DNA from: Anaerolineales bacterium
GTDB lineage: Bacteria; Chloroflexota; Anaerolineae; Anaerolineales; UBA6668
Direction: 5' to 3'
Length of the DNA: 64,000 nucleotides
Assembly (NCBI GenBank): GCA_020630175.1
Contig: JAHDBW010000003.1
Span: forward strand, 11,982-75,981
Numbering within the stretch: the first letter of the stretch is position 1; each line of letters starts with the position of its first letter. The notes under the pieces were generated by a model. The model searched no databases and was not told where the DNA came from. It was given only the letters and a program-made list of their open reading frames with translations. Both the position numbers and the translations under genes were made by a program. Shown here one piece after another: positions 1,508 through 58,243 of this stretch.

Positions 1508-1601
1508 GTGCCTGGCCGCACTACGCTGTAGCCGCATATAACTAACCTCAATTTTGAATAAGAGAGCCAAAGCGGCTTGCTTTTCTCGGTTTATTGCAGA
1601 A

Positions 1602-1618
1602 GAGACCACCTTGGTCTC
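1602..1618. repeat. 7-bp-stem hairpin GAGACCA-CCT-TGGTCTC, member of a dispersed hairpin family
   Basis: Same core ACCACCTTGGT and same flanks (CARA...GGYG) as hairpins at 41641-41657 and 41710-41726, with compensatory outer base pairs. Confidence 0.5.
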
Positions 1619-1743
1619 GGTGAAACCAACAGAAGCAAATTAGGATTATGTTTACGTCGCTAGCCTAGCCTGCGTATAAAAGACGCTTTATAGATCACTT
1701 GGCAGCGCATCGCGTTATTCAGAATTCAGGTTAACTAAGACTC

Positions 1744-20188: not shown

Positions 20189-21898
20189 CTACAGGTACCC
20201 TTCATCGAAATCACTTTTAGCACTTTCATAGGCAGTTTGCTGGTCGTCTTCATTTAGATACCCAACCGCACGATAAAGCGTTTCGTCATAGTCGCGGGTT
20301 TTGATCACAACTGGCATCGGCACTGCATGGCCTAATATCAATGCTTGCTGTTGCGTATCTAGCCGGGCTAACACTTCACGTAGTGAGCTTGCGCCACTAA
20401 CCCCAGAGAACACTGCGCGAATATCAGCTTCGTTATCAAGCAGGGCGGTGACGCGCGTGCCGATCTGGCTCATGACTTCATCATCGATTCCGCTTGGGCG
20501 CTGATCTACGACTAACAAAGTGACGTTGTACTTGCGTAGCTCACGGGCAATCGTGCCAAAAATTGTGTGTTTTGCAATTTCTGGATCAAGAAACTTGTGC
20601 GCTTCTTCGATCACAATCATCAGCGGTTTGGGTTGCGCGCCTTTTTGGGTTGTCGCCTTGTTTTTCGCCTCAACATAACGCTGGTGAACGCGGCGCGTGA
20701 GGTAATTTGCAACCAGCATATAGGCGGGTAGATTATCCCCATGCTTGCCAAATTCGAGCACGACACTGGTGCCATTGGTGAGCTTGTCGAAGATTTCGGT
20801 AACAACATTGTTGCTACTTTTTTCAACGAGAAAATCCATGCGCCGGAATAGTTCAAACTTCCGTTGGATAGCACTCAACGTGCCTTTGACCAACATGCCT
20901 TCATCAATAATCGTGTCGATTTCGTCACTGCCTTTTTCATCAAGTAACTTGGCGACCCAGTCTTTGCCTAATTTGCGGCGTAAATAATAGAGTGCGCCCG
21001 TTTGCACGTCGGACAGGTTCAGCATGCTGCTGAGCATTTCTACATCGGCGGGCTCAATATCTGAATATTGAATTTGGAATTCACCTGAAATTGTGTTGTT
21101 CCGCGCGCGCGATGTTTCTGCATCCAAGGTGTATAGGCTAGGGCGATTGGACGCAAGGATCTGGGTTAGCCCTTTCCACGTTTTGCCACGCTCATTCGTG
21201 ATTTCCCAGCCATAATCGCTGTGCATGTCAAAAATCAGACAAGAGGCTTTTTGCTTTGCAATCACGGCGGCTAACAAGGTCCGGGTGATAAAGGATTTCC
21301 CGGTCCCGCTCTTGCCAAACACGCCTGAAGACCGTTCTACAAAGCGATCTAGATCAAGGTTGACCTTGACGCCATCCATATCCAGCGGTGACCCGATGTA
21401 AAAGTGGTCGTCATCTTCTTCACCAAAGACTTGGTTTACGTCCTCTTCAGTGGCTTTGAAGACCGGTGAAAAGTGCGCTGGAATGGTCTTGTTAGGACGC
21501 GGTTCTTTGGCGTCTTCTTCTAACATCAACATTGGTGAGATGTTGGCGCGACCATAGGCGACGGTTGCGCGATAAATGTCCGCTAAGAATGGGCTGCTTG
21601 GGTCTGGTGGCGTTTGCTCAATGGCTGGATTGGTGTTATCTAAGATGATGTCCGTCACAATTGAGAAGAACTTCCGCTTCGTAAGCCCTTGCGCCACAAC
21701 GTAACGCCCAACGGCCATGTCTTCAATGGTTTGGCCAACGGCAGAACTGCTGTCTAGTTTGACCGTAATGCCCTTAGAAAGCGAACCGCCAACCACAACG
21801 CCGAGGCGTACGCGCGCTTCCTCACTGGCAGTGTCATTTTCTAATCCGATGGGGCGATTGTCTTCATCGCGTGGTAAAAAATCGTCTAAGTCGCTCAT
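20189..21898 (-). CDS. herA: HerA/FtsK-superfamily ATPase (DUF87-type)
   Basis: N-terminal barrel-like segment, Walker A GKSGTGKS, Walker B LMIVIEEAH, and LLVVDQRPS. Confidence 0.8.
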   Translation of the reverse strand: MSDLDDFLPRDEDNRPIGLENDTASEEARVRLGVVVGGSLSKGITVKLDSSSAVGQTIEDMAVGRYVVAQGLTKRKFFSIVTDIILDNTNPAIEQTPPDPSSPFLADIYRATVAYGRANISPMLMLEEDAKEPRPNKTIPAHFSPVFKATEEDVNQVFGEEDDDHFYIGSPLDMDGVKVNLDLDRFVERSSGVFGKSGTGKSFITRTLLAAVIAKQKASCLIFDMHSDYGWEITNERGKTWKGLTQILASNRPSLYTLDAETSRARNNTISGEFQIQYSDIEPADVEMLSSMLNLSDVQTGALYYLRRKLGKDWVAKLLDEKGSDEIDTIIDEGMLVKGTLSAIQRKFELFRRMDFLVEKSSNNVVTEIFDKLTNGTSVVLEFGKHGDNLPAYMLVANYLTRRVHQRYVEAKNKATTQKGAQPKPLMIVIEEAHKFLDPEIAKHTIFGTIARELRKYNVTLLVVDQRPSGIDDEVMSQIGTRVTALLDNEADIRAVFSGVSGASSLREVLARLDTQQQALILGHAVPMPVVIKTRDYDETLYRAVGYLNEDDQQTAYESAKSDFDEGYL

Positions 21899-22482
21899 AG
21901 TAAGCTCTCCAAGCGGCGTAAGATGGTGTCCAGACGTTGGAAGTCGTTCCCCATTAACTGGGCTAAATATTGCCCAGCGGTGCGTAGATATTGCGCCCGA
22001 TTTGGGTGGGCTTGCGCGGCTTGTTCTAGGACGCGCACGGTTAGTTCATCTGTGGGGGCGTCACTGGCTTGGAAGATCAACCTTAGAAAGTTGAAATCAC
22101 TTGTGAGCGCGGCAATTTCGGTATGTTCGCACAGCGCAATGTGGCTCAGCGTGAGCGGCGGTTGCGGTGGCAAGCCCGTGCGTACTTTTGTGCCTTGCAT
22201 ATAGCCAAGCGTTAGCACGCTTACCTCAATCGGCATTTGACGCTGCCGCTGATCTTGAATGATTTCAATCGGCGTGTCTTGATTGCCAACAATCTGCCGC
22301 ACAAGGTCATCATCTTCTAAAACAATGTTATAGATGGTGCCAATGGCGTGCGCAGTGCCGTTTTGAATAGGAACTTTTACAAATGCACCAAAATGGGGCA
22401 TCTCTGGTTTAGGAATAGCACAGCCAAAGGTGAAGCTCTGAATAGAGCTATGTAATAGCTGCCCGATTTGAATAGGCGACAT
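21895..22482 (-). CDS. 195-aa protein of unknown family, N-terminus HAS-barrel-like
   Basis: ATGA overlap with herA and a 5-nt gap after nurA. The N-terminal ~60 aa follow the same hydrophobic/Gly pattern as the HerA N-terminus. Confidence 0.6.
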   Translation of the reverse strand: MSPIQIGQLLHSSIQSFTFGCAIPKPEMPHFGAFVKVPIQNGTAHAIGTIYNIVLEDDDLVRQIVGNQDTPIEIIQDQRQRQMPIEVSVLTLGYMQGTKVRTGLPPQPPLTLSHIALCEHTEIAALTSDFNFLRLIFQASDAPTDELTVRVLEQAAQAHPNRAQYLRTAGQYLAQLMGNDFQRLDTILRRLESLL

Positions 22483-22487
22483 GATAG

Positions 22488-23717
22488 TTATCTACGTTTT
22501 TTGCGGCGTTTGGGTCTGGTAGACCCTTTCAGTTTTAGTTTGGCAGACTTGTGCGGCACGATGTTCTTCTTTAACAGTTCGCGGGTCAGCATATTTTCTA
22601 CGACCGTGCGATCTTGCGTTTGAATGACAGCTTCACCATCGGCGCGTGCCAGTGCATATGGGTAGTGCACGCCAGCGGTGTATTGTGATTGGCTGACCAA
22701 GGTTGCATGTAACAGGGCGATTTGCTCTGGATTGGTCGCAATCCACTCTGGTATTTCTACGCGCACCACGACTGGTGTTTCAGCAACCAAGCTGACATTC
22801 AAATAGAAAATGTGAATGCTATGCGTTTGATTGGCTCTTTCTTGTAAGGTGCGCTTGCGATAGGGCTCATTCCAGCCCGATGTTGTTTGGAAAATGGCGG
22901 ATCGCTCCCCCGGTCCCAAGTGTTTTTGAAACACGGCTCGATCAGAGACACCACCAAAGGGCGGCTCTTTTGCTTCAATTGCAACGTCTAATGCGTCTAT
23001 TTCAAAGCTAGACAGCCACAGCAGATTCAAAACTGGACTGCCGCCAGGTTGGTCTACATAGCCTGCCAACGCGCAGTCGCAATCGGCTAAGCGGTCCATT
23101 GCTTTTAGGTGTCGGTTATAAAGATAGCCAGTTTCACGCGCCGAAATGCCTTCCCCTTGCGTGCGGAGTGCGATTGGCCCGTCGATCAAGCTGACAACTG
23201 GGTGTGGCGAGGCTGTTCCCGTGTCAAGGCTGAGTTCGGTCAGGCCTTCCATTTCTGCCACAGTGCGACGTAAGTTGACCAGCGGCACCGTCACCATACG
23301 TCCGTCTACCAATACATCTTCATTTGATGCGGCAAGCACGGTATTGCGCACAACGGTTGGGGCTTCACCAGAGCCAATCTGGATAATAAAAGCGCCAATG
23401 TTTAACAAGTAGTATTGCAATGCAGAATGTTTATCGGGATAGATTTGAGACCCATCAACAGCGATCACCGTTGCTCTAGGCGTTTGTGCAGGGCAAGGAA
23501 AGGTTGCGGCAACATTTTCACCAGTCGGCTTCGCGCCACTCCATTCTCTGCTGGCGGCCGCGATTTCAGCTTTTGCATGCAAATCTTGCATAGCGCTAGC
23601 GGCGTTGAGTTGAATCAGCGCGGCTGGAATCAATTTGCTGTGTTGCGTAATACGATCTGCAATCGCATTACCAGCGTCTTGAATTTGGTGGGTGATGGCT
23701 TGGATGTTTATACTCAT
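22488..23717 (-). CDS. nurA: NurA-domain nuclease with polybasic C-terminal tail
   Basis: IAVDGSQ, SLIDGPIAL, GYVDQPGGS and YPYALARADGEAV motifs in NurA order. The C-terminus is KLKLKGSTRPKRRKKRR. Confidence 0.75.
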   Translation of the reverse strand: MSINIQAITHQIQDAGNAIADRITQHSKLIPAALIQLNAASAMQDLHAKAEIAAASREWSGAKPTGENVAATFPCPAQTPRATVIAVDGSQIYPDKHSALQYYLLNIGAFIIQIGSGEAPTVVRNTVLAASNEDVLVDGRMVTVPLVNLRRTVAEMEGLTELSLDTGTASPHPVVSLIDGPIALRTQGEGISARETGYLYNRHLKAMDRLADCDCALAGYVDQPGGSPVLNLLWLSSFEIDALDVAIEAKEPPFGGVSDRAVFQKHLGPGERSAIFQTTSGWNEPYRKRTLQERANQTHSIHIFYLNVSLVAETPVVVRVEIPEWIATNPEQIALLHATLVSQSQYTAGVHYPYALARADGEAVIQTQDRTVVENMLTRELLKKNIVPHKSAKLKLKGSTRPKRRKKRR

Positions 23718-38367: not shown

Positions 38368-39072
38368 ATGGCTGAAAACCTCATTACCCTCGACAATGTC
38401 ATCAAAAATTTTGAAGGCCCAGCAGGCACAATCAATGTATTAAAAGGCATTGATTTGCGTGTTTCTACTGGTGAATTTGTTGGTGTGTGTGGGCCTTCTG
38501 GTAGCGGTAAGTCTACATTGATGAACATGATTACCGGCATTGACCGCCCAACGGATGGCACGGTGACGGTTGCTGGGCAAGTGCTTAATAATATGAGCGA
38601 AAACAAGCTGGCGCGTTGGCGTGGCAAAACGATTGGGGTTATTTTTCAATTCTTCCAGCTGCTGCCAACGCTGACCGTGCTTGAGAACGTGATGTTGCCA
38701 ATGGACTTTTGTCGCGTTTGGACACCGCGTGAGCGCCCAGAACGTGCCATGTTTTTGCTAGACCAAGTTGGGCTAGCCGATCAAGCGCATAAATTGCCAT
38801 CGACCTTGTCTGGTGGTCAGCAGCAACGGGCGGCCATTGCGCGTGCGTTAGCGAATGATCCGCCACTGTTGGTGGGGGATGAGCCGACCGGGAATTTAGA
38901 TTCCAAAACAGCCGATAAGGTGTTCCAACTCTTCAATGAATTGATTGCTGGCGGTAAAACGTTCTTGATGGTGACGCATGACACGTCGCTAGCGGGGCGC
39001 ATTCCGAGAGTAATCAACGTTTTAGACGGCGTGCTTTATGAAACCGACGGCGCTGGCGCGATTGTGGAATAG
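38368..39072 (+). CDS. MacB/LolD-type ABC ATPase
   Basis: Walker A GPSGSGKST, signature LSGGQQQR, Walker B LLVGDEPT, H-loop VTHD. Confidence 0.9.
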   Translation: MAENLITLDNVIKNFEGPAGTINVLKGIDLRVSTGEFVGVCGPSGSGKSTLMNMITGIDRPTDGTVTVAGQVLNNMSENKLARWRGKTIGVIFQFFQLLPTLTVLENVMLPMDFCRVWTPRERPERAMFLLDQVGLADQAHKLPSTLSGGQQQRAAIARALANDPPLLVGDEPTGNLDSKTADKVFQLFNELIAGGKTFLMVTHDTSLAGRIPRVINVLDGVLYETDGAGAIVE

Positions 39073-39173
39073 CCATGGCATTGGAATCCCGCTCAGGATG
39101 TAAATCGTTACGGCATTCCTCTGCACTGATAAAGCATCTAAATTCCGCACTGTAACTTACTAGGAGCTTCCCC

Positions 39174-41567
39174 ATGTCTGTCGCATATCGAAAAGTTTGG
39201 CGCGATTTATGGCGCAACTGGTCACGCACGTTATTAGTGGTGATGAGTATTGCGACGGGCGTAATGGCCTTGGGGATGGTGTTAGCTGCTAACCGCGTCA
39301 TGAATAGCCAAATGTCGAGCAGCTATTCGGCGACGACTCCGGCGCATGCGGTGCTTTACCTCAATCAACGTGTTGATGATGCCACGTTGACCGCCTTACG
39401 CCGCTTGCCAGACGTTGACGATGTGCAAGGTGTGCAATCCTTTAGCCTCAATTGGAAGCGCAATCTCACCGACGAGTGGGAGTCCGACGCCGCAGAATTC
39501 ATCGTCATTGACGACTTTACCGCCCAAAAATATGAACAAGTACGCCTAACTGGCGGCGTTTGGCCAACAAGTAAAACTGTTGCCGTGCCAGATAACCATC
39601 GCACTGATTTTGACATGCCCGAACTTGGCGGCGATTTGTATTTCGAAATCAATGACCGAGCCCGGTCCTATCGGATGGTGGGTCAGGTGTATGCCGCCCA
39701 ATCCTTCTCGCCGCCATTTGATACGCGCCCAGTGTTCTATGTAGACCAAGGCTTTGCCTTACGCACGGTTGGCCGCAGTGGATACAACGAAATTCGGCTA
39801 CGTATTCCAGACTATTCTCCAGAACAACTCGATGCCGCCATTGGGATCGCCAAAGACAAGCTTGAAAACCAAAACGTACGCGTTGGTGGGGTGCATAAGA
39901 ACATCCCCGGCGAACATCCCATTCAAGAAATTTTCAACGGCGTGGGCATGATTTTGTCGGTCATGGCCGTTGCTCTATTGATTCTGAGCTTGTTTTTGGT
40001 GATCAACACCATCAATGCAGTTATTGTGCAGCAGGTGCCGCAAGTGGGCATTATGAAGACAATTGGTGGCGTCACCAAGCAAATCTCGCGCTTGTATTTA
40101 GCGGGCGTGGCGATTTATGGCTTGCTCAGCTTATGTGTTGCGGTGCCTCTAGGGATATTTGGCGCAAATGCGTTAGCTGAATACATGTTGACGATTATCA
40201 ACGTGCCAACCGGCGGCGTTCAAATTCTGCCTGAAATTGTTGCGCTCCAGTTTGCTGCTGGCCTTGTGACGCCGATCTTGGCCGGGCTTTGGCCTATTTT
40301 TCAAGGCGCAGCGGTCTCTGTTCGAGAAGCCCTGCAAAATGGATTCGGCGGCTCAGGCGGCTATGGCAGTAGTCGGTTAGATCGCGCTTTGACCAAGGTC
40401 AAACGCTTGCCACGTATCGTTGTCCTCGCTTTACGTAACACGTTTCGACGCATGTCACGCGTGTTGATGACGCTGCTAGTGCTGACGCTGGCTGGCACCG
40501 TGTTTATGATGGTCTTCGCGACCAATGCCTCGCTAGTTGGCACGATTGATGACATTTGGGAAGGCTTTGGCTTTGATGTGATCATGGGCTTTGAAAAATC
40601 ACAGCGCATTGCCGAAGTAGTGCCGCTGATTGAATCGCGACCGGGTATTGAGGCCGCTGAAATGTGGATCTGGACCTCTGCCACTGGTCGTAAACCGGGT
40701 GAAACGGATATTACAAAAGAAGTCCGCGTGCGTATTCGGGCAGTGCCAAAAGAGTCGAAGCTGTTTGCGCCGCAGTTGGTGGCCGGCCGCGCGTTAGATA
40801 TCAATGATGAACATGCGCTGTTGCTCAATCAAGATATTGCCGGTGAATATGGCTATGCTGTCGGCGACACCATTGAACTCGATTTTGGGTCTGATGGCCT
40901 GATTGAGTGGCAAATCGTGGGCTTGGTTGCAGACATTACCAGTGATCAGAAGACGGCCTACTTACATCTAGAAGTCTTCAACAAATCGCTCAATCAAGTT
41001 GGGCGGGCCAGCGTGGCCGAAATTGTGACCACTGACAAAACATTCGATGGTCAAATTGCCATTCAACGCGACCTAGAAACCTTCTTTGCGGATCAAGGGG
41101 TTGAAGTGGCTTGGGCCTCAAGCGCTGGTGAAGACCGCGCTGAGTCGCAATCGCAGTTCAACATCCTCATCAACATATTGCTGGTGATGACGGTCTTGAT
41201 GGCGCTAGTGGGGAGCATTGGCCTGTCTGGCACGCTCTCAATCAACATTATTGAACGGCGGCGTGAAATTGGCGTGATGCGCGCGGTGGGTGCGTCTTCG
41301 GTTGATGTGGCGCTCATTTTTATTATTGAAGGCTTGCTTGTTGGGCTAGCCAGTTGGGTGATTGCTGTGCCGATTAGCATGATTGCCGGGCGCTATTTTG
41401 TGCAAGGCATTGGCGTCGCGATTGATTTTCCCGCGCAGTATCACATTGATACCGTTGGCGTTTGGCTGTGGCTTGGCATTGTCACATTGCTTTCAATCGT
41501 GTTTAGCATTTTACCGGCGCGCAAAGCAACGCAAATTAGCGTGGCGCAAAGTTTGGCATATGAATAA
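39174..41567 (+). CDS. FtsX/MacB-type ABC permease with two FtsX modules
   Basis: 797 aa: TM1, large extracytoplasmic domain, 3 TM, then a repeat of the same unit. Ends with the typical ...SLAYE. Confidence 0.85.
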   Translation: MSVAYRKVWRDLWRNWSRTLLVVMSIATGVMALGMVLAANRVMNSQMSSSYSATTPAHAVLYLNQRVDDATLTALRRLPDVDDVQGVQSFSLNWKRNLTDEWESDAAEFIVIDDFTAQKYEQVRLTGGVWPTSKTVAVPDNHRTDFDMPELGGDLYFEINDRARSYRMVGQVYAAQSFSPPFDTRPVFYVDQGFALRTVGRSGYNEIRLRIPDYSPEQLDAAIGIAKDKLENQNVRVGGVHKNIPGEHPIQEIFNGVGMILSVMAVALLILSLFLVINTINAVIVQQVPQVGIMKTIGGVTKQISRLYLAGVAIYGLLSLCVAVPLGIFGANALAEYMLTIINVPTGGVQILPEIVALQFAAGLVTPILAGLWPIFQGAAVSVREALQNGFGGSGGYGSSRLDRALTKVKRLPRIVVLALRNTFRRMSRVLMTLLVLTLAGTVFMMVFATNASLVGTIDDIWEGFGFDVIMGFEKSQRIAEVVPLIESRPGIEAAEMWIWTSATGRKPGETDITKEVRVRIRAVPKESKLFAPQLVAGRALDINDEHALLLNQDIAGEYGYAVGDTIELDFGSDGLIEWQIVGLVADITSDQKTAYLHLEVFNKSLNQVGRASVAEIVTTDKTFDGQIAIQRDLETFFADQGVEVAWASSAGEDRAESQSQFNILINILLVMTVLMALVGSIGLSGTLSINIIERRREIGVMRAVGASSVDVALIFIIEGLLVGLASWVIAVPISMIAGRYFVQGIGVAIDFPAQYHIDTVGVWLWLGIVTLLSIVFSILPARKATQISVAQSLAYE

Positions 41568-41600
41568 CGCCTGCTAAGGCTGGTCTGTAAACAACTAAGA

Positions 41601-41852
41601 CGTGTGTGATCAAATGTTGTGAGAGGCTGTTTACTTCGCCGGAACCAAGGTGGTTCCTTTGACGCTGGCCAGCAGAAATAAAAACGCCAAGGTTAGCACC
41701 CATCTCAGAGCGACCACCTTGGTCGCGGTGTTTACCCCCGCAACAATGCGATAGAAAGTGTTGCGGGTTACTTCGCCGAAACCATGATGGTTCTTTCTGA
41801 TCCTGATAATCAATATAATTATGAAGTGTCACAACATTTGATCACACATCCG
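41601..41852. mobile_element. MITE-like element or long-stem structured RNA
   Basis: 20-bp perfect inverted termini (41603-41622 / 41829-41848), CTAAGA on both flanks (41595-41600, 41853-41858), four internal hairpins, and a 34-nt internal direct repeat. Confidence 0.4.
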
Positions 41853-41929
41853 CTAAGATGCTAAGACGGCCTCTCACAAAATCTGCAACTGTCCTTTACA
41901 ATTCATTCAATAGTATTAAGGACACCTCT

Positions 41930-43132
41930 ATGCAAATTCATTCTCCGGCTTCAGTTGGCTTGAGCGCGGATCGGCTCGACCGGATTGGCGCACTCAACCA
42001 ACGTTACGTTGATCAACAAAAACTCCCTGGCTTTATTTCACTTGTCGCTCGGCACGGGAAAATTGCTTACCTCGATACGCGTGGCTACATGGACATTGCC
42101 ACGCAGACGCCCTATCAACCAGACACCATTGTGCGCATGTATTCGATGACAAAACCGATTACAAGCATGGCGCTGCTGATGCTGTATGAACAGTCGTTGT
42201 TTGACTTTTTTGATCCGATCGCAGCGTATTTGCCAGAGTTCAAAGACGTGCAGGTCTACGATGGGGGTGAACTCGCACCGCTTGATCGACCGATTACGAT
42301 TTTTGATCTGTTGACGCATACGTCGGGGCTAACCTATGGGTCTTTTGGGGACCCATTGGCGCACCCAGTGAACCATATGTATGACGCGGCTGATATCTTC
42401 GGGAAGAATAAATACCCCTCATTAGCGGCGGCTGTGAAAAAGATTGCTAGCCTACCGTTACGCTTTCAGCCGGGGCAACAGTGGGAATACAGCGTGTCTA
42501 CCGACGTGCTAGGACGCTTAGTCGAAGTGCTGTCTGGTCAATCTTTGGGCGCGTTTATGGAACAGCATATTTTCCAGCCATTGGGCATGGTGGATACTAT
42601 GTTTGGGTTCTCTGAAGACAAGCAAGATCGGGTGGCAACGCTATACACCGTTACGCCAGAAAATCCATTGGCGGTGGCAGACCATCCTTCGCAAAGCCAT
42701 TTTTCTGCCCCAGCCGCCGCGCATTTTGGTGGAGGCGGCCTGCTGTCTACGGCAGAGGATTATTTCCAATTTGCGTCTTGTTTACTGAATAAAGGCACGC
42801 TGAACGGCAACCGGCTGCTAGGGCGTAAGACAGTAGAGCGCATGCAGATGAATCATATGCCAGAAAGAATGCTGCCCATTGCATGGCAAATGAATGACGT
42901 TATGCACGGCATGGGCTTTGGGCTTGGTCTAAGCGTGGCCATGGATATTACGCAAACGGGCGAAATGGGCACTAACGGTCAGTATGGCTGGGGTGGCTTT
43001 GCCGAAACAACGTTCTGGGTTGATCCCGCTGAGCAACTCATCGCAATGAACCTCACGCAGTGCCTGCCGGCAAGTTTTTACCCTGTCCGAACCCAATTCC
43101 GCACGGCTGTTTACCAATCTTTAGTTGAATAG
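41930..43132 (+). CDS. serine hydrolase (beta-lactamase/PBP4-like family)
   Basis: SMTK active-site motif, YS.S region, and a C-terminal GWGG element. Start moved to ATG 41930, which has an AAGGA SD. Confidence 0.8.
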   Translation: MQIHSPASVGLSADRLDRIGALNQRYVDQQKLPGFISLVARHGKIAYLDTRGYMDIATQTPYQPDTIVRMYSMTKPITSMALLMLYEQSLFDFFDPIAAYLPEFKDVQVYDGGELAPLDRPITIFDLLTHTSGLTYGSFGDPLAHPVNHMYDAADIFGKNKYPSLAAAVKKIASLPLRFQPGQQWEYSVSTDVLGRLVEVLSGQSLGAFMEQHIFQPLGMVDTMFGFSEDKQDRVATLYTVTPENPLAVADHPSQSHFSAPAAAHFGGGGLLSTAEDYFQFASCLLNKGTLNGNRLLGRKTVERMQMNHMPERMLPIAWQMNDVMHGMGFGLGLSVAMDITQTGEMGTNGQYGWGGFAETTFWVDPAEQLIAMNLTQCLPASFYPVRTQFRTAVYQSLVE

Positions 43133-43141
43133 GAGCGCCGG

Positions 43142-43993
43142 ATGTCAGAATTTTCACCACAAGAATTTGTCTCTGATGAAGAGATTGCGCAATTTCAGCG
43201 TGATGGCGTCGTTGTATTGCGGAATAAGTTTTCAAAAGACTGGATCGATTTACTGCGTGAAACGATCGACGAATCACGCAACCGGCCGAGCCCGCATTTA
43301 GTGCGCCACACCAAAGATCCGAATGCGCCGGGCTATTTTGAAGACTTCTGGTCATGGAGTATGTTCGACGGCTTTGAGACGTTTGTGCGTGAATCGCCAA
43401 CGGCAGCGCATGCGCAACAGTTGCTTGGTGGCGAACGCATCAACCTTGTCATGGACAACTGGTTCATGCGTGAAGCGGGTTCAAAATCGCGTCCGCCGTT
43501 TCATCAGGATCTTTCTTATTTCGATTTCTTTGGTTCGATGTGCGTGCTGTGGCTGCCGCTAGAACCGCTCACAAAAGAAAATGGAATTGCCTTTGTGAAA
43601 GGGTCGCACCAGTGGGGCAAACACTTTATGCGTGTGCGCTTTACAGACGGACACGAAGCTGGCTCAGATGGCACAACGACCGTCAATGGCGTGACCTATG
43701 AATTGCCACCAGATATTGCCTCTAATCAAGACGAATATGATCTCGCGACGTTTGACATGGCGCTTGGCGACTGCATCTACTTTGATATGCGCACGCTGCA
43801 TGGTGGTGTCTCAGATGTTATTCCCACTGAAACAATCCGGCGTTATACCTTACGCATGACCAAAGAAGACGGCGAGTTACGTTACCGTGGCGATTGGGCC
43901 AAAGGTGAACGCGAAATGTTTGAAGCCGCTGGCTACAAAGAAGGCGATGCGATTGCTGGTGACTTCTTCCCGCAGTTGTATCCCCGTAAATAA
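43142..43993 (+). CDS. phytanoyl-CoA dioxygenase (PhyH) family Fe/2OG oxygenase
   Basis: FHQD...(H.D) and a distal LHGG histidine in PhyH-like spacing; 283 aa. Confidence 0.7.
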   Translation: MSEFSPQEFVSDEEIAQFQRDGVVVLRNKFSKDWIDLLRETIDESRNRPSPHLVRHTKDPNAPGYFEDFWSWSMFDGFETFVRESPTAAHAQQLLGGERINLVMDNWFMREAGSKSRPPFHQDLSYFDFFGSMCVLWLPLEPLTKENGIAFVKGSHQWGKHFMRVRFTDGHEAGSDGTTTVNGVTYELPPDIASNQDEYDLATFDMALGDCIYFDMRTLHGGVSDVIPTETIRRYTLRMTKEDGELRYRGDWAKGEREMFEAAGYKEGDAIAGDFFPQLYPRK

Positions 43994-44011
43994 TTAGCTG
44001 TCTACTGGCCT

Positions 44012-44049
44012 CTGCGTATGTGCCACCCCTCGGGGTGGCACATACGCAG
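44012..44049 (+). terminator. 17-bp-stem hairpin after the PhyH gene (no T-run)
   Basis: CTGCGTATGTGCCACCC-CTCG-GGGTGGCACATACGCAG. Strong stem, but not a canonical intrinsic terminator. Confidence 0.45.
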
Positions 44050-44126
44050 GAACCTCTTTATTCCCTCACATTTATTCACTTAAATTTCATAGACGCATCG
44101 TCAAAAAATTAGAAGATACTACGCAC

Positions 44127-44204
44127 TTACTGATCGATAAGTAAAATCGTTGACTCTCGGCTGGAATGGCGCTACACTTTGCTTACTAATCGATCGATAA
44201 GTAA
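44127..44204 (+). promoter_or_regulatory. TetR gene promoter with two palindromic operators
   Basis: O1 is TTACTgATCGATaAGTAA (44127-44144); -35 TTGACT (44150-44155); -10 TACACT (44173-44178); O2 is TTACTaATCGATCGATaAGTAA (44183-44204). Confidence 0.55.
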
Positions 44205-44816: not shown

Positions 44817-46319
44817 ATGAACACAACGAAAACGCCCGTTTTTGAACTCAAAAACGTCTCCAAAATTTACACAACCGGCGCGGGTGACTTTGCGGCGCTT
44901 GATGATGTGTCCTTCAATATTTATCCCGGTGAATTTCTAGGCATTGTAGGGCGCTCTGGGGCGGGTAAATCGACCCTGCTCAACATGCTGTCTGGCGTGA
45001 GCAAGCTGTCTGCTGGGCAGGTGCTTTACAACCAATCTGATGGTACGGCGCTTTCTATTCATGACCTCAATCAAAATCAGTTAGCCACGTGGCGCGGTGA
45101 AAACATTGGCATTGTGTATCAATCGTTTGAACTGCTGCCGATGTTAGATCTGGTCAATAACGTGATGCTGCCGCAAGACTTTTTAGGCGTTTACAACGCC
45201 AAGACCAGCCCCGCGCACGCTTTAGATCTACTCACCCAAGTTGAAATTGGCGAGCATGCTTACAAGATCCCGGCGCATGTGTCTGGCGGACAGAAACAAC
45301 GCGTGGCGATTGCGCGTTCCCTGACCAATGATCCGGCAGTGATCATTGCCGATGAGCCAACGGGTAGCTTAGATAGCAAAACAAAAGAAACCATCTTCAA
45401 GATTTTTGAAGGATTAGTTGCCAACGGTAAAACCGTGGTGATGGTGACGCATGATCAAGGTCTGAAAGGGCGGTTTGATCGGACCTTGCAAATTTCTGAT
45501 GGACGCGTCACTGGTGATGCTGTTTCGTTTGCGGGCGCAAGCGTAGCCAAAGTAGACGAGAAAGGCCCAGATGAGTCGGCACTAGCCACTGCTGAAGATA
45601 CAAATTCTGCCAGTGAAAAAAGCGCCATCAGTCTTGAAAATGTCACTAAGACTTACGTTGGACCTGCCGGTGAATTTACGGCGCTCAAAAACATCAATCT
45701 CGATTTTCACTACGGTGAATTTGTTTCAATAGTGGGGCAATCCGGCAGTGGCAAGTCTACGTTGCTCAATATGCTGACCGGCATTGATCATCCAACGAGC
45801 GGCAATGTCACGATCAATGACCTGGCCGTGTATGGCATGACCGAAAGCCAGCGAGCGCTATGGCGCGGGCGTAATCTAGGCATTGTGTTTCAGTTCTTCC
45901 AACTGCTGCCAATGCTCACGCTGGTTGAAAACATCATGTTGCCGATGGATTACTGCAACACGTACAAGCCGCGTGAACGGCGCGCCAAAGCCATGGAACT
46001 GCTTGACTTAGTGGGGCTGAAAGATTTCGCTCGTAAATTGCCCTCAGCCGTCTCGACTGGGCAACAGCAAAGTGCTGCCATTGCGCGGGCACTTGCTAAT
46101 GATCCGCCCATCATCGTCGCCGATGAACCAACTGGAAACTTAGACACCCGCGCGGCAAACACAATCATCCAATTGTTCCGGCGCTTGGCGCAACAGGGCA
46201 AAACAATTCTGATTGTGACGCATGACCCCGGCCTAACGCGCTTTACCGACCGCACGATTACTTTGGCCGATGGCGAAGTGGTCAACCGTGAACTAGCGCC
46301 TGAGCTTTCGGTGGCCTAG
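44817..46319 (+). CDS. tandem (fused) MacB-type ABC ATPase, second signature degenerate
   Basis: NBD1: GRSGAGKST / VSGGQKQR / IIADEPT. Then a 40-aa linker. NBD2: GQSGSGKST / VSTGQQQS / IVADEPT. Confidence 0.85.
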   Translation: MNTTKTPVFELKNVSKIYTTGAGDFAALDDVSFNIYPGEFLGIVGRSGAGKSTLLNMLSGVSKLSAGQVLYNQSDGTALSIHDLNQNQLATWRGENIGIVYQSFELLPMLDLVNNVMLPQDFLGVYNAKTSPAHALDLLTQVEIGEHAYKIPAHVSGGQKQRVAIARSLTNDPAVIIADEPTGSLDSKTKETIFKIFEGLVANGKTVVMVTHDQGLKGRFDRTLQISDGRVTGDAVSFAGASVAKVDEKGPDESALATAEDTNSASEKSAISLENVTKTYVGPAGEFTALKNINLDFHYGEFVSIVGQSGSGKSTLLNMLTGIDHPTSGNVTINDLAVYGMTESQRALWRGRNLGIVFQFFQLLPMLTLVENIMLPMDYCNTYKPRERRAKAMELLDLVGLKDFARKLPSAVSTGQQQSAAIARALANDPPIIVADEPTGNLDTRAANTIIQLFRRLAQQGKTILIVTHDPGLTRFTDRTITLADGEVVNRELAPELSVA

Positions 46320-46323
46320 TAGT

Positions 46324-48738
46324 ATGAGTAAGACGAAAAAATACCTCACGTCTCCGCGTTGGCTCAAGGTGTTCTTAGACATCTGGGAAAACCGTTCCCG
46401 CACCATTTTGGTGGTAGCGTCAATTACGGTCGGTGTGTTTGCGGTCGGCATGATTATGACGGCCTACAACATCCTTGAAACGGACATGGAAACCGGCTAT
46501 GCGTCGGCTAATCCAGCCAACGTTCAAATTCTGACTGACCCGTTTACCGATGATTTTGTGAGCGCAGTGGAACGGATTGAAGGCGTCAAAGACGTTGAAG
46601 GGCGCTTTAAAACCACTATGCGCATCAGTCATGATGACGGTGTGACTTGGCGCAATTTGGACGTGATTGCCGTTGATGATTTTGCAGCGAGCAAAATTTA
46701 TTTGCGCGGTGCCATTGCAGGCTCAAGTACGCCAGATGATAAAGAAATGCTGCTCGAAGCGCGCATTCTTGATCAGTTAGATGTTGCCGTTGGCGATGAC
46801 TTCTTGATCCAATTGCCGAGCGGCACGCAGCGTGAAGTGCCGTTGGTTGGGCTGGTACGTGATCCCTCTGTGGCCGGTGGCCCAGATGCGGCGGCTGTTA
46901 TTTACATCACAATGGGCACCTTAGAATGGCTCGGCCAGCCGCGCACCATGAACCAGTTGCTGACAACCGTGCACGGTGACGCGAATGATCAAGCCAATCT
47001 TGATACCGTTTCTGCCCGTGTCGAAGACCGCGTCGAAAAGAATCAAGGCACTTTGTATAGCTCGACGACCAACCGGCGTAATGAGCATCCGGCAAGCAAT
47101 ACGATTTTGGCAATTCTAGGCGTGATGGGCGCGTTAGGCGGCTTGATGCTTATTTTAGGGAGTTCACTCATTGCCAATACGCTTACTGCGCTCCTAAATC
47201 AGCAAATGCGGCAGATTGGGGTGATGAAGCTGGTTGGTGCCAAAAGCTTACAGATTGTGGGCATGTATTTGATCCTGATTATTGTGCTGGGTCTGATCTC
47301 ACTCTTGATTTCCGTGCCGTTGGGTGCATATGGTGGGTATCAGTTTGCGCTTTTCTTTGGTGGCATTGTTGGGTTAGATATTGCTGCATTTCGGTTTGTA
47401 CCAACCGCCATGGTGGTGCAAGCGGCTATTGCGGTGATCGTGCCTATTCTGGCCGGAATTATTCCAGTCATGCGCGGGTCGCGTCTAACAGTTGAAGCTG
47501 CAATTTCAGATGGCGATGAAGGTGGCGCTACGGGGCGCTTTGCTTTCTTAGATCGACTTGGCGAAACGGTCGACTGGTTTACCCGTCCGTTACTTATTTC
47601 ATTGCGGAATACGTTTCGTAATTTGCCACGGCTGATGCTGACATTGTTCACGCTAACAGTGGCCGGTGGCATTTTTATCGCGGTGTTCAATATGCAGGCC
47701 TCGCTCGAGAACTTTATTGGGCAAGTGTCCCGCTTGTTTGTGGCTGATGTTTCTATTGATATGGCCAGACCGTATCGTGAAGCTGAAATTGCTAGTTTTA
47801 TAGAAGGCGTGCCCGGCGTGCTAGGCACTGAGGCGTGGGTTTCTGCTGTGGGCGAAGTTGAACATTTTGATGGCAACGATGTTGTCTTCAATATTCAAGC
47901 GCCGCCAGCAGGCAGCGTTTTGGTTGATCCAGAGCTGAAAGCGGGGCGCTTTTTACGGGAAGGCGATCAGTATGCAATTGCCGTTGCGGAAACTGTTTAC
48001 GAAGAATTTCCGGACATGATGCCAGGCGACGTGATCCCGATATCAATCGATGGTGAGCGCGAACAACTGTGGACGGTGGTCGGCATTTATGCGTTCCCTG
48101 GTCGTGATGTGGACGCGATTTTTGCCTACGCACCGTATGAAATCATTGCGCCAATGACCAACCAAATTGGGCAGGCGTCCACCATGAAGGTGCTGACAGA
48201 CAATCACACGATTGAAGCCCAGCGTGAAATGGTCAACGTGCTCGATGCGCGTCTTAAAGATCAGGGCGTGCAATTACGCAACGTATCGGCAGGGTTGACA
48301 ACCGTCGAAGGCATTTCTGAAGGCATTGCAACGTTGGTCACGTTATTCTTAGGGATGGCGGTGCTGACGGCAATTGTGGGCAGCATTGGCTTGGCGGGGA
48401 TGATGTCGATGAACGTGATGGAACGCATTCGCGAGATTGGCATTCTGCGTGCGATTGGCGCTGTAGATGGGGCGATCATGCGCTCTGTCTTATTTGAAGG
48501 CGTGTTTATTGGCGTGCTCAGCTGGTTATTTGGGATTGTTGTCTCATTCCCAATTAGTTCAGGATTGTTAACAATTGTGAGCTTAGCATTGACAAATTCG
48601 GTCATGCCATTGAAATTTAGCCCAACGGGATTTTGGCTTTGGTTAGTTGTGATCTTGGTGCTTTCAACGCTGGCTAGCGTGCTGCCAGCGCGGAATGCGT
48701 CTAAGCTCACTATTCGTGAGGTGTTGGCCTACGAATAA
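46324..48738 (+). CDS. FtsX/MacB-type ABC permease, paralog of 39174-41567
   Basis: 804 aa with the same two-module architecture and the same C-terminal ...VLAYE ending. Confidence 0.85.
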   Translation: MSKTKKYLTSPRWLKVFLDIWENRSRTILVVASITVGVFAVGMIMTAYNILETDMETGYASANPANVQILTDPFTDDFVSAVERIEGVKDVEGRFKTTMRISHDDGVTWRNLDVIAVDDFAASKIYLRGAIAGSSTPDDKEMLLEARILDQLDVAVGDDFLIQLPSGTQREVPLVGLVRDPSVAGGPDAAAVIYITMGTLEWLGQPRTMNQLLTTVHGDANDQANLDTVSARVEDRVEKNQGTLYSSTTNRRNEHPASNTILAILGVMGALGGLMLILGSSLIANTLTALLNQQMRQIGVMKLVGAKSLQIVGMYLILIIVLGLISLLISVPLGAYGGYQFALFFGGIVGLDIAAFRFVPTAMVVQAAIAVIVPILAGIIPVMRGSRLTVEAAISDGDEGGATGRFAFLDRLGETVDWFTRPLLISLRNTFRNLPRLMLTLFTLTVAGGIFIAVFNMQASLENFIGQVSRLFVADVSIDMARPYREAEIASFIEGVPGVLGTEAWVSAVGEVEHFDGNDVVFNIQAPPAGSVLVDPELKAGRFLREGDQYAIAVAETVYEEFPDMMPGDVIPISIDGEREQLWTVVGIYAFPGRDVDAIFAYAPYEIIAPMTNQIGQASTMKVLTDNHTIEAQREMVNVLDARLKDQGVQLRNVSAGLTTVEGISEGIATLVTLFLGMAVLTAIVGSIGLAGMMSMNVMERIREIGILRAIGAVDGAIMRSVLFEGVFIGVLSWLFGIVVSFPISSGLLTIVSLALTNSVMPLKFSPTGFWLWLVVILVLSTLASVLPARNASKLTIREVLAYE

Positions 48739-48933
48739 CTCCCAACACTGGTGCAAAAGCGATAGACTTATTTGCTAAGCACCAAATTAAATAATTGACA
48801 GTAAATTCAAGGTTGTAATTGTGCAACTTACGTGGTCACTATACGTATATATCAACACAATCTACAGATCTTGTAAAAAATCCAGAAGAAAATCAACACA
48901 CACAGTTTTAATAAGGTGTATCAAAATATAATT

Positions 48934-50670
48934 ATGAAATCAATTCAACGTAATTTGCTTGTATTGCTTTTGCTACTTTCGCTAGGTCTAGTAGCTTGTA
49001 GCGGTGCCGATGATGGTAGCGCAGCTGAAGGCGATGCAACTGAAATCCCAATCGTAATCGACGATTTTGATGTTGTTGCAGATGGCCGCATTATTCCAAT
49101 TAATGATGTCAACCTTGCTTTTGAAACAGGCGGTACGCTTTCAGAAGTGCTTGTAAAAGAAGGTGATGTTATTGCGGCTGGCGATGTGATTGCGCGCCTG
49201 ACCAATATTGAACAGCTCGAAGCGGCTGTTGCCGGAGCGGAGCTAGAATTAAAGTCTGCTGAGTTAGAACAACAATCTGCGCAACAAGAGTTGCTAAGCG
49301 CTGAAAAGGCCTACAACGATCTGTTCGAACTTTATGATGTCAATGATCCTGCAATTCAGTTGCAAATTGCGCAATTAGAAGATCAAATCACGGCATCACG
49401 CGACAAGCTAGATGATGCCGAAGATCGACTTGAGTATTACCTTGACAAAGACTCGCGTGATCTTGAATATTACGAAGATTTGGTTGAAGCAGCAGAAGAC
49501 AGAGTAGAAGCTGCCCAAGACGCGATCGAAGATGCCGAACGGGGCCTTCTGACAGCAAATCAAGGCGTGCAAAGTTTTGAGGTTAGCGCTCAACGGGATG
49601 AAACCACAAATCTCAGCGTGCTTGAACAATCGGCAGCGCTCATTGAACTGGGCCCATTGCAAGATGCGGTGCGGGTCATGCAAGATCAGTTGCGTTCAAA
49701 TCAAGAACAGTTAGGGAATGCGCAAGTTGCCCATAACGATAACTGTACCGAGCGTGCAGAAGATGAAGACCTGCCAGCCTGCCGCACAACGGATGCTGTG
49801 CACTTGGGCCAAAGCTTAGAGCAATGGCAGCAAAACGTTCGGGATGCACAAACCAATCTAGACGAAGCTGAACTAACGCTAGAGCAAGCCCGCCAAAACA
49901 ATGCCAATGCGCGCACAGAAGCTGAGATCGCGGCGCAAGAAACGCAAACCAATCGTGAAATTACACGCACTAATAATGCCAATGCAATTTCTGATGCGAA
50001 TGAAGCGATTGCCGATGCGCAAGAACATCTTGTTGATATGCAAGAAGACTTAGCAGAAGCGGTTGAAGACTTGGAGTTGGAACGCAATTATGAAGCAAGT
50101 GAACTCCGGATTTCAGAAACTGAAGCGGATATCACCGTTGCCAAAGCAGAAATCGTAGATGCGACTAACCGGATTGAAGAATTGAAAGCTGGCCCAGAAG
50201 GCGAAGACGTAACTCTAGCAGAAGCGCGCATTCAAACGGCGAACACGCGTCTGGCAACGGTTGAAAACCGTATTTTGACTGGTGAAGCAAATCTGCGCGC
50301 TGCGCAAGCAAACTTGGCAGATCTTGAGTTGGTTGCACCAATTGGTGGCACGGTAACCAATCTGAATTTGAAAGTTGGCGAACAAATTTTGCCGGGTGCG
50401 CCAGCGTTGACGGTTGCAGATGTTTCCGAATGGGTCGTTGAAACTGAAAACCTGACTGAAATCGAAGTTCCAAGTGTCTTTGTGGGTCAGACAGTGACGA
50501 TTGTGCCAGATGCTTTGCCAGACTTAGAACTTGCCGGTGTAGTTGAGTCAGTCGATGACTCCTTCATCGAACGGGCTGGTGACATCACTTATACTGTCAA
50601 TATCAAAATTACTGAAAGTGACCCACGCCTAAAGTGGGGCATGACAGTTGTTGTTACGTTCAAAGAGTAA
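48934..50670 (+). CDS. HlyD-family periplasmic adaptor lipoprotein with very long coiled coil
   Basis: Lipobox LVAC. Lipoyl-like halves (GTLSEVLVKEGDVIAAGDVIARL ... LVAPIGGTVTNLNLKVGE) are separated by about 330 aa of heptad-rich sequence. Confidence 0.75.
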   Translation: MKSIQRNLLVLLLLLSLGLVACSGADDGSAAEGDATEIPIVIDDFDVVADGRIIPINDVNLAFETGGTLSEVLVKEGDVIAAGDVIARLTNIEQLEAAVAGAELELKSAELEQQSAQQELLSAEKAYNDLFELYDVNDPAIQLQIAQLEDQITASRDKLDDAEDRLEYYLDKDSRDLEYYEDLVEAAEDRVEAAQDAIEDAERGLLTANQGVQSFEVSAQRDETTNLSVLEQSAALIELGPLQDAVRVMQDQLRSNQEQLGNAQVAHNDNCTERAEDEDLPACRTTDAVHLGQSLEQWQQNVRDAQTNLDEAELTLEQARQNNANARTEAEIAAQETQTNREITRTNNANAISDANEAIADAQEHLVDMQEDLAEAVEDLELERNYEASELRISETEADITVAKAEIVDATNRIEELKAGPEGEDVTLAEARIQTANTRLATVENRILTGEANLRAAQANLADLELVAPIGGTVTNLNLKVGEQILPGAPALTVADVSEWVVETENLTEIEVPSVFVGQTVTIVPDALPDLELAGVVESVDDSFIERAGDITYTVNIKITESDPRLKWGMTVVVTFKE

Positions 50671-56990: not shown

Positions 56991-57695
56991 TTATTCCTCA
57001 ATCACGCGCCAATTGAATTTGGTCGCAGCGGTGCGTAGTTTCTTGTCGGGGTCAACCGCCACGGCATCGTGGGCAATGTTTAGCATCTCGATATCCTCAC
57101 CCGTGTCACCATAAGCAGCCGCGAGCTTGCCTGCCTGAAGAAAGGGCTTTAGCGTGGCGACTTTGTGCTTTTGCACGTTGAACGGCCCATCAACTTCACC
57201 AGTAAACACGTCATCTTTGTAAATAATGGGTGTACCAATGGCTTCAATGCCGGGTAATCCTTCTAGTACGCGCTTTAGAAATGGCTCTGGCATGCCTGAG
57301 GCAATAACAACGCGCTTTCCGTCTGCAACGTGCGCGTTCAATTCTGCTAAAACTGACTTACGCATGTTGGGTATCAAAATATTGTCAACGCTCCAGTCGA
57401 TCACGCTTTGAAACGTCTCACGTGGGACCCCAGTCCAAATCCGCAGCAGGTCGCGCATGGTTTGTTCTTTAACACGTCTGGCCGCGGGCAGTTCTAGTTT
57501 GATAATGGGATAGTAATGTAACCGTTTCAACAGGAAATTACGTGCGACGCTGCTTTGTCCATGCGTTTGTAAATAAATTAGAAAGCCTTTGTACAACTGT
57601 GAATTCGAAAGCGTTCCTTCAAAATCTACTGCAACTGTGGGGCGCTCATTGCTGGGCGGCGTGTTGAGTAAGGCGAAATCTGTCCGAGCACTCAT
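56991..57695 (-). CDS. HAD-IB-like hydrolase
   Basis: VAVDFEGTL motif I and C-terminal GDTGEDIEM motif IV. Confidence 0.7.
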   Translation of the reverse strand: MSARTDFALLNTPPSNERPTVAVDFEGTLSNSQLYKGFLIYLQTHGQSSVARNFLLKRLHYYPIIKLELPAARRVKEQTMRDLLRIWTGVPRETFQSVIDWSVDNILIPNMRKSVLAELNAHVADGKRVVIASGMPEPFLKRVLEGLPGIEAIGTPIIYKDDVFTGEVDGPFNVQKHKVATLKPFLQAGKLAAAYGDTGEDIEMLNIAHDAVAVDPDKKLRTAATKFNWRVIEE

Positions 57696-58243
57696 AATAA
57701 ATCTGCGGTGTTAAGCACTGTGGCAAATTCTTCATTTAGATTTGCTAATGCGATCATATGGATAGTTTCGGCTGGATGATACACACCATTGTGATCAGTA
57801 CTGTCATGCGCGGCGGTTGCATCGGCGACAAGGTAAGTGTCAAAGCCGAGGTTTTCGGCCATTCGGGTTGTGGTTGAAACACAGTGATTGGTTGTTAATC
57901 CACAAATCACGACTTGGCTAATACCATTGTCGCGTAAATGTGCTTCCAGATTGGTGCCGATAAAGGCGCTGTTCACGTTTTTTGTGATGTGCGTTTCACC
58001 CGGCAACGGTTGCAGAGCCGGTTTGATTGCCACGCCCGGTTTACTCGGGTGCAATGATGACTCGGGGTATTTTGACAAATGTTGAATGTGCACCAGCGGT
58101 CGGCTGTGTGCGCGCCAGTGTTGCAGTAGACGCAGGCAATTGGCCTCAGCATCTGGATTGTTGCGCTTGCCCATTTGGGGATGATCTAAGCCTAGCTGTA
58201 GATCCACTAAGAGCAGGGCTGCGTTTTCAGAAATATTATGCAT
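57692..58243 (-). CDS. isochorismatase-family cysteine hydrolase
   Basis: ALLLVDLQ start region and [11 protein letters not shown] catalytic Cys motif. Start moved to ATG 58241-58243; the track ORF extends into trmD. Confidence 0.75.

Follow-up and report, generated by a model that had tools for sequence, protein, structure and literature searches.

A non-coding element resembling miniature inverted-repeat transposable elements, with terminal inverted repeats shared among related Anaerolineales genomes

Bacterial miniature inverted-repeat transposable elements (MITEs), such as the Correia elements of Neisseria, the ERIC/IRU elements of enterobacteria and the RUP/BOX elements of Streptococcus, are non-coding, intergenic sequences of 100-300 bp that carry terminal inverted repeats (TIRs) of 20-26 bp and give rise to size variants by internal deletion. 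When transcribed they form a long hairpin, and they are often located by gene starts, where they can alter transcription or RNA processing. The analysis presented here concerns a segment of comparable build, spanning 246 bp from TIR to TIR at positions 41603-41848 (plus orientation) of a 64,000-nucleotide stretch from an Anaerolineales bacterium of the phylum Chloroflexota (contig JAHDBW010000003.1 of assembly GCA_020630175.1; this whole 64-kb stretch is referred to as the window). The family to which the segment is assigned shares with bacterial MITEs its size, its non-coding and intergenic nature, its TIRs, the existence of deletion variants, a hairpin fold and a position at gene starts. Unlike the Correia, ERIC/IRU and RUP/BOX elements, to none of which it shows sequence similarity, the element belongs to a Chloroflexota host, presents no TA or other duplication abutting its ends and has an interior made of a different small repeat family. 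With moderate confidence, the segment is read here as a non-autonomous TIR element of the MITE type. Its membership is only partly proven, and it has been filed as MITE-like rather than as a proven MITE because an abutting duplication and an autonomous partner were both sought and neither was found. Elements of this kind are ordinary, and the TIR family itself has most likely not been described before.

Two genes, 362 nt apart, enclose the element: a MacB/FtsX-type permease gene (39174-41567, plus strand), the stop codon of which lies 35 nt before the left arm, and a gene encoding a 400-aa beta-lactamase-fold serine hydrolase (41930-43132, plus strand; 100% identical to protein P0001), the ATG of which is located at 41930, 81 nt after the right arm. 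Its plus orientation designates a right arm pointing towards the hydrolase gene. The left TIR, TGTGTGATCAAATGTTGTGA (41603-41622, plus strand), and the right TIR (41829-41848, minus strand), which is the exact complement of TGTGTGATCAAATGTTGTGA, pair at 20 of 20 positions across an intervening 206 nt, confirming the perfect 20-bp inverted termini reported in a preliminary description of this DNA. The same description held that both ends extend to CG, and arrived at a length of 252 bp by counting extra end bases; the ends are in fact asymmetric (CG|TGTGTG on the left, CACACA|TCCG on the right). The right arm is preceded by G and T, like the right ends found in related genomes (GTCACAACATTTGATCACACA). 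No further match to the 20-mer was identified in the 64 kb at up to three mismatches, and none was expected or observed in 100 dinucleotide-preserving shuffles; the perfect 20-bp TIR is beyond chance expectation. A 296-nt region containing the element folds far better than shuffled sequences on both strands (z = -6.5 and -5.5), and the hairpins previously listed for a non-coding interior (41641-41657, 41710-41726, 41737-41767 and 41780-41792) are all real. Two minus-strand open reading frames (ORFs) overlap the element, neither of which matches a Pfam family above threshold, and the element has no coding capacity. At 246 bp and without coding capacity, it falls within the size range of MITEs (non-coding, below about 600 bp), and its 20/20 arms provide the terminal inverted repeats expected of them.

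Each end carries two GT(T)GTGA repeats spaced 13-14 bp apart and a TG...CA terminus. Termini of the latter form, which we take to be shared by IS3, IS481, IS21 and Tn7, were used as a lead only, and the ends were assigned to no insertion sequence (IS) family. Two other candidate identities were discarded on inspection: the 20-mer contains TGTGA twice, in direct orientation (TGTGA-N8-TGTGA) and not as the TGTGA-N6-TCACA of a CRP-type operator, and the ends do not match the GTTRRRY of an integron attC site.

Related copies were sought by scanning one genome per species, for 185,579 species, for exact instances of the 20-mer. Matches were found in six stretches (L001 to L006), all of them in two Anaerolineales metagenome-assembled genomes (MAGs), MAG-116 and MAG-93. 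Since L001 and L005 are one region assembled twice, with 100% identity over 5,920 bp, these stretches represent five distinct loci, all of which are intergenic. Three of them harbor long copies of 312 bp (L001, 6432-6743), 292 bp (L003, 1278-1569) and 293 bp (L004, 6042-6334). L002 is an 88-bp version in which an internal deletion has kept only the two ends, with 48 nt between the arms, and L006 is a solo right end of 52 nt. The left ends of L001, L002, L003 and L004 carry the same 20-mer as the window, matching at 20 of 20 positions in the long copies, the right arms of which retain 16/20 and 15/20 positions; the right arm of the mini copy retains 18/20. The interiors of the long copies are 72-80% identical to each other. 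A test for compensated substitutions among these homologs, which had been proposed as a check, found almost no covariation (1 of 82 pairs, in three sequences). With diverged interiors and right arms and next to no covariation, the MAG copies appear to decay like mobile DNA. In five of the six loci, the window included, the right arm points towards the 5' end of the next gene, at a distance of 46-81 nt in three of them.

The MAG family also presents a long foldback with nested inverted repeats (CTTAAGTTGCAC, CTTCGCTCAGTGGGGG and their complements). In L003, a run of N follows directly upon the right end of the element and is flanked by an exact 55-nt duplication (1567-1621 = 1722-1776, within 1567-1776), an arrangement suggestive of an artefact of scaffolding at a repeat. 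In the MAG-116 bin, contigs 142 and 148 overlap at 100% identity over at least 5.9 kb. Beyond these genomes, the 20-mer had 0 matches in collections of metagenome and viral contigs, a blastn comparison of the element with plasmids and phages returned no match, and neither the end sequences nor the MAG accessions turned up in a literature search.

The significance of a 20-mer shared among these genomes depends on how closely they are related. The window's GuaA protein is 87-88% identical to two NCBI proteins, encoded in MAG-93 and MAG-116, and the next match is 73% identical; by this measure the two MAGs are the window's closest relatives. Contigs from both show colinearity with the window for more than 20 kb, beginning at the permease gene and continuing to the right end of the window. 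Nucleotide identity between window and MAGs is 68-74%, most syntenic proteins are 59-87% identical, and MAG-93 and MAG-116 are about 78% identical to each other. Intergenic DNA is unalignable between the window and the MAGs, with the exception of the TetR operator-promoter region. Neutral retention therefore does not explain an identical 20-mer in three species, since the other intergenic DNA can no longer be aligned.

Colinearity also provides a view of the same site without the element. In both MAGs, the stop codon of the permease gene, the last syntenic gene, is followed after 107 nt by the TetR gene and its operator. Homology between the window and its relatives ends at 41567 and resumes at 44125, and these 107 nt hence correspond to a lineage-specific block of 2,557 nt in the window (41568-44124, plus strand), which comprises the element, the hydrolase gene, a gene for a PhyH-family dioxygenase (43142-43993, plus strand) and a terminator-like perfect 18-bp palindrome (44012-44049) that closes the block. 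Orthologs of the hydrolase had been considered as markers of empty sites and were set aside, as their synteny is not kept (GCV_T or hydantoinase neighbours); it was synteny anchored on GuaA that yielded the empty site. A second case of presence and absence at orthologous sites is found in MAG-116 (assembly GCA_020630225.1), where the L001 copy shares a 779-nt spacer with a 102-aa ORF that belongs to no known family; the orthologous spacer in L133 measures 49 nt. The junctions are unalignable in both cases (the window against both relatives, L001 against L133). The search for related copies and empty sites that the preliminary description had called for thus returned five MAG loci with the same ends, and absence of the element at the syntenic site in both relatives.

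Several observations concern the L001 and L133 regions themselves. A tandem (TGTCAAC)x4 at 7958-8000 fills the 49-nt spacer of L133. The first 12 nt of the 102-aa ORF of L001 (ATGAAGAAAATT) are identical to those of the L133 GFO gene, and the ORF may be a fusion artefact of an insertion rather than a gene. The MAG-116 assembly contains the region Mrp antiporter-ClpS-MR_MLE-DUF218-GFO twice, at about 76% nucleotide identity, and because the region is present in two versions, the bin mixes two related populations or has a large old duplication.

For five copies, the 20 nt adjoining either end were searched for flanking direct repeats. In the window, the 8-mer CTAAGACG touches the left arm (41595-41602, plus strand), and a CTAAGATG-CTAAGACG tandem resembling a target-site duplication, although not abutting, begins 4 nt past the right arm (41853-41868, plus strand), which places the right-hand copy of CTAAGACG 12 nt past that arm. 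A flanking repeat as good as CTAAGACG is obtained in 0.27% of random position pairs (p = 0.0027). Corresponding values for the MAG copies are 0.073 for L003 (TTCGSCAAT) and 0.056 for L004 (TAAAAC), and L001 and L002 have no flanking direct repeat of note (p = 0.66 and 0.61). Our own Fisher combination of the five values gives approximately 0.006, better than chance overall. The CTAAGA repeats from which a target-site duplication had been proposed are located where they were placed (41595-41600, 41853-41858 and 41861-41866); the duplication itself is not established, as the repeats do not abut both ends and the other copies show no clean one.

Positions 41611-41630 recur beyond the right arm as a degenerate inverted copy (17/20, 11 bp of which are perfect) at 41866-41885 (minus strand). 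The copied segment covers the left arm's inner half and a further 8 nt of interior, and since the match includes these 8 interior nt, this third arm is taken to be a degenerate copy of the element's own left end. Its existence agrees with the second partner previously assigned to the left arm. The alternative pairing in the hydrolase leader suggested on that basis is not sustained, as the 20 perfect pairs of the two TIRs would outcompete it. A single promoter-like site, CTCACA-18-TACAAT (41873-41902, plus strand; a consensus match only), was recognized outside the element, 28 nt upstream of the hydrolase ATG, and the third arm covers part of its -35 box. Within the element, a sigma-70-type scan, whose rules do not extend to the promoters of this phylum, found no promoter-like site in either orientation, and the scan for promoters and terminators revealed no intrinsic terminator built on the element's hairpins.

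A MITE-type reading is favoured by the combination of small size, lack of coding capacity, perfect TIRs shared at unrelated intergenic sites, size variants, decay without compensation and absence at syntenic sites. A number of results weigh against it. The window's interior shows no similarity to the interior of the MAG family, and because the two are unrelated, homology rests on the 20-22 nt of the ends. The element is a single copy in the 64-kb window. Target-site duplications abutting the TIRs are missing in five of five copies examined, and the flanking repeats that do occur are offset by 0-12 nt from the ends and differ in length between copies; hence, a classical target-site duplication is not shown. 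In both cases of presence and absence the polymorphic block exceeds the element in size, and neither therefore shows a clean insertion of just the element. Furthermore, the 8-kb MAG loci contain no transposase-like ORF, the scan of species genomes contains no pair of 20-mer arms more than 312 bp apart, and no transposase was seen among the 51 ORFs of the window, which were surveyed by eye and with a partial Pfam search rather than a full scan. The transposase-bearing relative whose discovery would have been expected from the preliminary description did not emerge from the 20-mer scans of genomes, metagenomes and viral contigs, nor from the window and the loci. Since MAG assemblies often drop IS copies, the missing autonomous relative is weak evidence. 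The MITE-like character originally proposed for the segment is thus upheld insofar as the same ends delimit other small intergenic elements in two genomes and the element is absent at syntenic sites, and is not upheld as regards an abutting duplication and an autonomous partner.

In a rival explanation, the element is the surviving end of the event by which the hydrolase-PhyH block arrived, or served as its recombination handle. One form of this explanation is a one-ended or alternative-end transposition, with a perfect left end and a weak surrogate right end beyond the cargo. A described parallel is ISEcp1, which captures adjacent resistance genes by a one-ended mechanism, and the resemblance consists in an element end located directly upstream of a beta-lactamase-fold gene that is missing at the relatives' syntenic site. 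The element does sit exactly at the left junction of the block missing in the relatives, 35 nt past the last shared gene, and the L001 copy, compared with L133, is likewise found inside an extra block bigger than itself. The hydrolase, moreover, looks like an acquired paralog, because its homologs in the relatives are only about 60% identical to it, as against 59-87% for most syntenic orthologs, and occur in other contexts (beside GCV_T, hydantoinase or CCP_MauG genes). Unlike ISEcp1, however, the unit contains no transposase, and neither a surrogate right end nor a duplication was detected: the far (right) edge of the 2.5-kb block shows no TIR-like relic (p = 0.30), and the block is bordered by neither direct nor inverted repeats. 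The cargo comes after a complete right arm and hence lies outside the TIR pair, and the hydrolase does not count among recognised resistance enzymes; its best match in NCBIfam falls far below the cut-off. With a sample of two cases and two related genomes for comparison, a deletion in the relatives' common ancestor is equally parsimonious. An origin of the element as the end of a gene-carrying insertion is therefore considered unlikely.

Rather improbable, too, is a structured leader or spacer RNA, in which the segment would act as a long-stem module for processing, stability or termination between the transporter and hydrolase genes, the 20-mers being conserved as its closing stem. Strong folding on both strands and the prevailing orientation and short distance of the right arm with respect to the next gene's 5' end are both compatible with such a function. 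In the MAG copies, the foldback is better kept on the strand facing the downstream gene (-74.4 kcal/mol versus -62.4 on the other), and one-sided substitutions result mostly in G.U on that strand and A.C on the other; with three sequences these are hints only, and the asymmetry could reflect RNA-level constraint or a strand-specific mutation bias. Several findings speak against an RNA. Rfam gives 0 matches in the window, the only match under E = 1 being a spurious one to mir-30 at 24.8 bits, far below the gathering score of 50.2. The near absence of covariation has been noted above, the window's interior is not conserved in the MAG copies, and both an 88-bp derivative and a solo end exist. In addition, a closing stem need not hold one exact 20-mer across species. 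The structured RNA offered as an alternative in the preliminary description was thus neither borne out nor overturned by a strong fold without family covariation or an Rfam match.

A more far-reaching proposal, and a long shot, is that these Anaerolineales have a system for gene capture or gene insertion, of which the conserved 20-22-bp ends are the markers. It arises because the element is in or at a lineage-specific block with an ORF or genes at both comparable loci and because no copy has a classical target duplication. Under such a system, the elements could move neighbouring genes, as recombination handles or as ends used in one-ended transposition, and the hairpin-rich interior might act as an RNA-level insulator of the captured genes.

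Invertons, such as the Mpi-dependent switches of Bacteroides and fimS of E. coli, are intergenic segments of 200-300 bp with inverted repeats of recurrent consensus and no target duplication. By analogy, a trans-acting site-specific recombinase, a single one for all loci with the same repeats, would flip the 206-bp interior and thereby alter read-through into, or expression of, the hydrolase gene. The element resembles invertons in being intergenic and directly upstream of a gene, in sharing with several loci the same inverted repeat around unrelated interiors, as from a master invertase, and in the lack of an abutting target-site duplication, which is what inversion predicts. It differs from them in that no promoter-like site is present inside in either orientation, the single such site lying outside, and in that no recombinase gene was seen nearby among the 51 ORFs of the 64-kb window within the same survey by eye and partial Pfam search. 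The family is, furthermore, decayed or truncated: right arms of 15-18/20 in the MAG copies, an 88-bp version with 48 nt between its arms and a solo end are unfit for inversion, and the two overlapping MAG contigs carry the element in the same orientation. An inverton is thus given very little credence.

The interior of the window's element is made up mostly of units of a second repeat family, which resembles repetitive extragenic palindromic (REP) sequences. Unit a (41622-41665, minus strand) consists of the hairpin GGAACCA-CCT-TGGTTCC followed by CGGCG, and unit c (41701-41745, plus strand) of GCGACCA-CCT-TGGTCGC followed by CGGTG. Unit b (41759-41803, minus strand) is degenerate and inverted with respect to unit c, with which it forms a doublet resembling REPINs (doublets of REP sequences); the tails of units c and b together make up the hairpin with a 9-bp stem at 41737-41767 (CCCGCAACA / TGTTGCGGG). 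A fourth copy, unit d (1593-1637, plus strand), is located outside any TIR, between convergent genes. The four 45-nt units served to build a covariance model (R1), under which they score 48-54 bits (51.4, 49.3, 47.7 and 53.6 bits for a, c, b and d, respectively), compared with at most 12 bits in the rest of the window; the model has no match in nine related loci. The motif ACCACCTTGGTNNCGG, allowing two mismatches, has 4 copies in the window versus 0.27 expected, and three of the four are inside the element. The 7-bp stem of the unit is paired in 96% of cells, and two of its seven pairs are changed on both sides (GGAACCA, GCGACCA, GAGACCA). This is the repeated, imperfect palindrome of about 40 nt with a compensated stem that characterizes REP and REPIN sequences. 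The hairpin family noticed earlier is accordingly real, as a REP-like repeat separate from the TIR family, and so is the direct repeat of about 34 nt (41626-41659 and 41763-41796, 82% identity), which is explained by unit a versus unit b. Because three units occupy most of the interior and none occurs in the nine related loci, the interior is regarded as a largely genome-specific REP-like repeat inside cross-species ends.

Some apparent similarities were traced to chance. The match to AACTAAGAC that had been noted near unit d at 1731-1739 is actually at 1733-1741 and has no evidential value, since any given 9-mer is expected about 0.5 times per 128 kb by our own arithmetic. A wider similarity between the element and 1500-1800 was considered and rejected, the common part being the 26-nt hairpin unit only and AACTAAGAC a chance 9-mer. 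Likewise, GACCACCTTGGTCNCGGTG gave at least 120 single matches in metagenomes, all high-GC and coding-looking and without the unit's flanking bases, and these were dismissed as chance. Unit d is followed, at about 1745-1782, by a strong terminator-like hairpin that is bidirectional.

These units resemble the REP, REPIN and bacterial interspersed mosaic element (BIME) sequences mobilised by REP-associated tyrosine transposases (RAYTs) in their internal imperfect palindromes of about 40 nt, covarying stem, occurrence as a single copy (1593-1637) and as an inverted doublet, and genome specificity. Two large REP superfamilies are marked by a GTAG or CGTC tetranucleotide at one end of the palindrome (PMC3733652). 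Inspection of the unit sequences showed that this tag is absent beside the units, which are flanked by CGGYG / CRCCG instead; in further contrast to those systems, no gene of RAYT type was recognized among the ORFs of the window, only 4 copies were observed in the window, and REP clusters are not normally enclosed by long, perfect cross-species TIRs as these units are. Hence, although three of the four significant unit copies of the 64 kb lie inside the element, two of them as an inverted doublet and all with a covarying stem, the notion that the entire segment is a REP/BIME cluster spread by a RAYT-type enzyme, with the outer 20-mers as another palindromic layer, is scarcely credible, because ends and units occur independently: the 20-mer is found in relatives without the unit, and the unit at 1593-1637 without the 20-mer.

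Taken as a MITE-type element, the segment would have its 20-22-bp ends as its only family-defining parts, and these would be the binding and cleavage sites of a trans-acting transposase encoded elsewhere, a postulated partner that was not found. The family would be common to at least three related Anaerolineales species, and the present copy would form the left edge of a lineage-specific 2.5-kb block inserted between the MacB-type permease and TetR genes. Transcripts reading through from the permease gene are predicted to fold into the 20-bp perfect duplex with its nested hairpins, and this duplex would likely act as a barrier of processing or termination, insulating the hydrolase gene from permease read-through. 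The hydrolase gene itself probably uses its own putative promoter just downstream of the element.

Other features of the window were recorded alongside. Two paralogous MacB-type ABC systems flank the lineage-specific block: the first (38368-41567) consists of an ATPase and a 797-aa permease, and the second (44817-50670) of a fused double ATPase, an 804-aa permease and an HlyD-like adaptor, the two permeases being about 30% identical to each other. A palindrome, CTTACTnATCGATnAGTAAG, occurs twice immediately ahead of the TetR gene (44124-44146 and 44181-44204), with a TTGACT...TACACT promoter between the two copies. Palindromes and promoter are kept in all three genomes (L131, 1665-1745; L132, 1322-1402), while the rest of the spacer is not, and the CTTACTnATCGATnAGTAAG copies are probably the TetR operators, putative as yet, of the downstream MacB-type efflux operon. 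On the minus strand at 20189-23717, a HerA (DUF87) ATPase gene, a 195-aa ORF without a Pfam match and a NurA nuclease gene follow in a row, which is an archaeal-type end-resection or defence-like module. An isochorismatase gene is found at 57695-58243 (minus strand).

Small mobile or repeated DNA is little known in the Anaerolineales, which are mostly uncultured, and elements of this kind have hardly been reported from the phylum as a whole. TIRs that are identical across species at about 70-78% nucleotide identity suggest that the transposase or recombinase acting on them is still active or was itself exchanged recently, and the TIR family may thus serve as a marker for gene flow among co-occurring populations. 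The repeated association of these ends with lineage-specific gene blocks, together with the lack of a target duplication, is the point of note. In the genome analyzed here, the element marks the junction of an acquired hydrolase-dioxygenase pair beside two MacB-type efflux systems, and probably insulates that pair transcriptionally.

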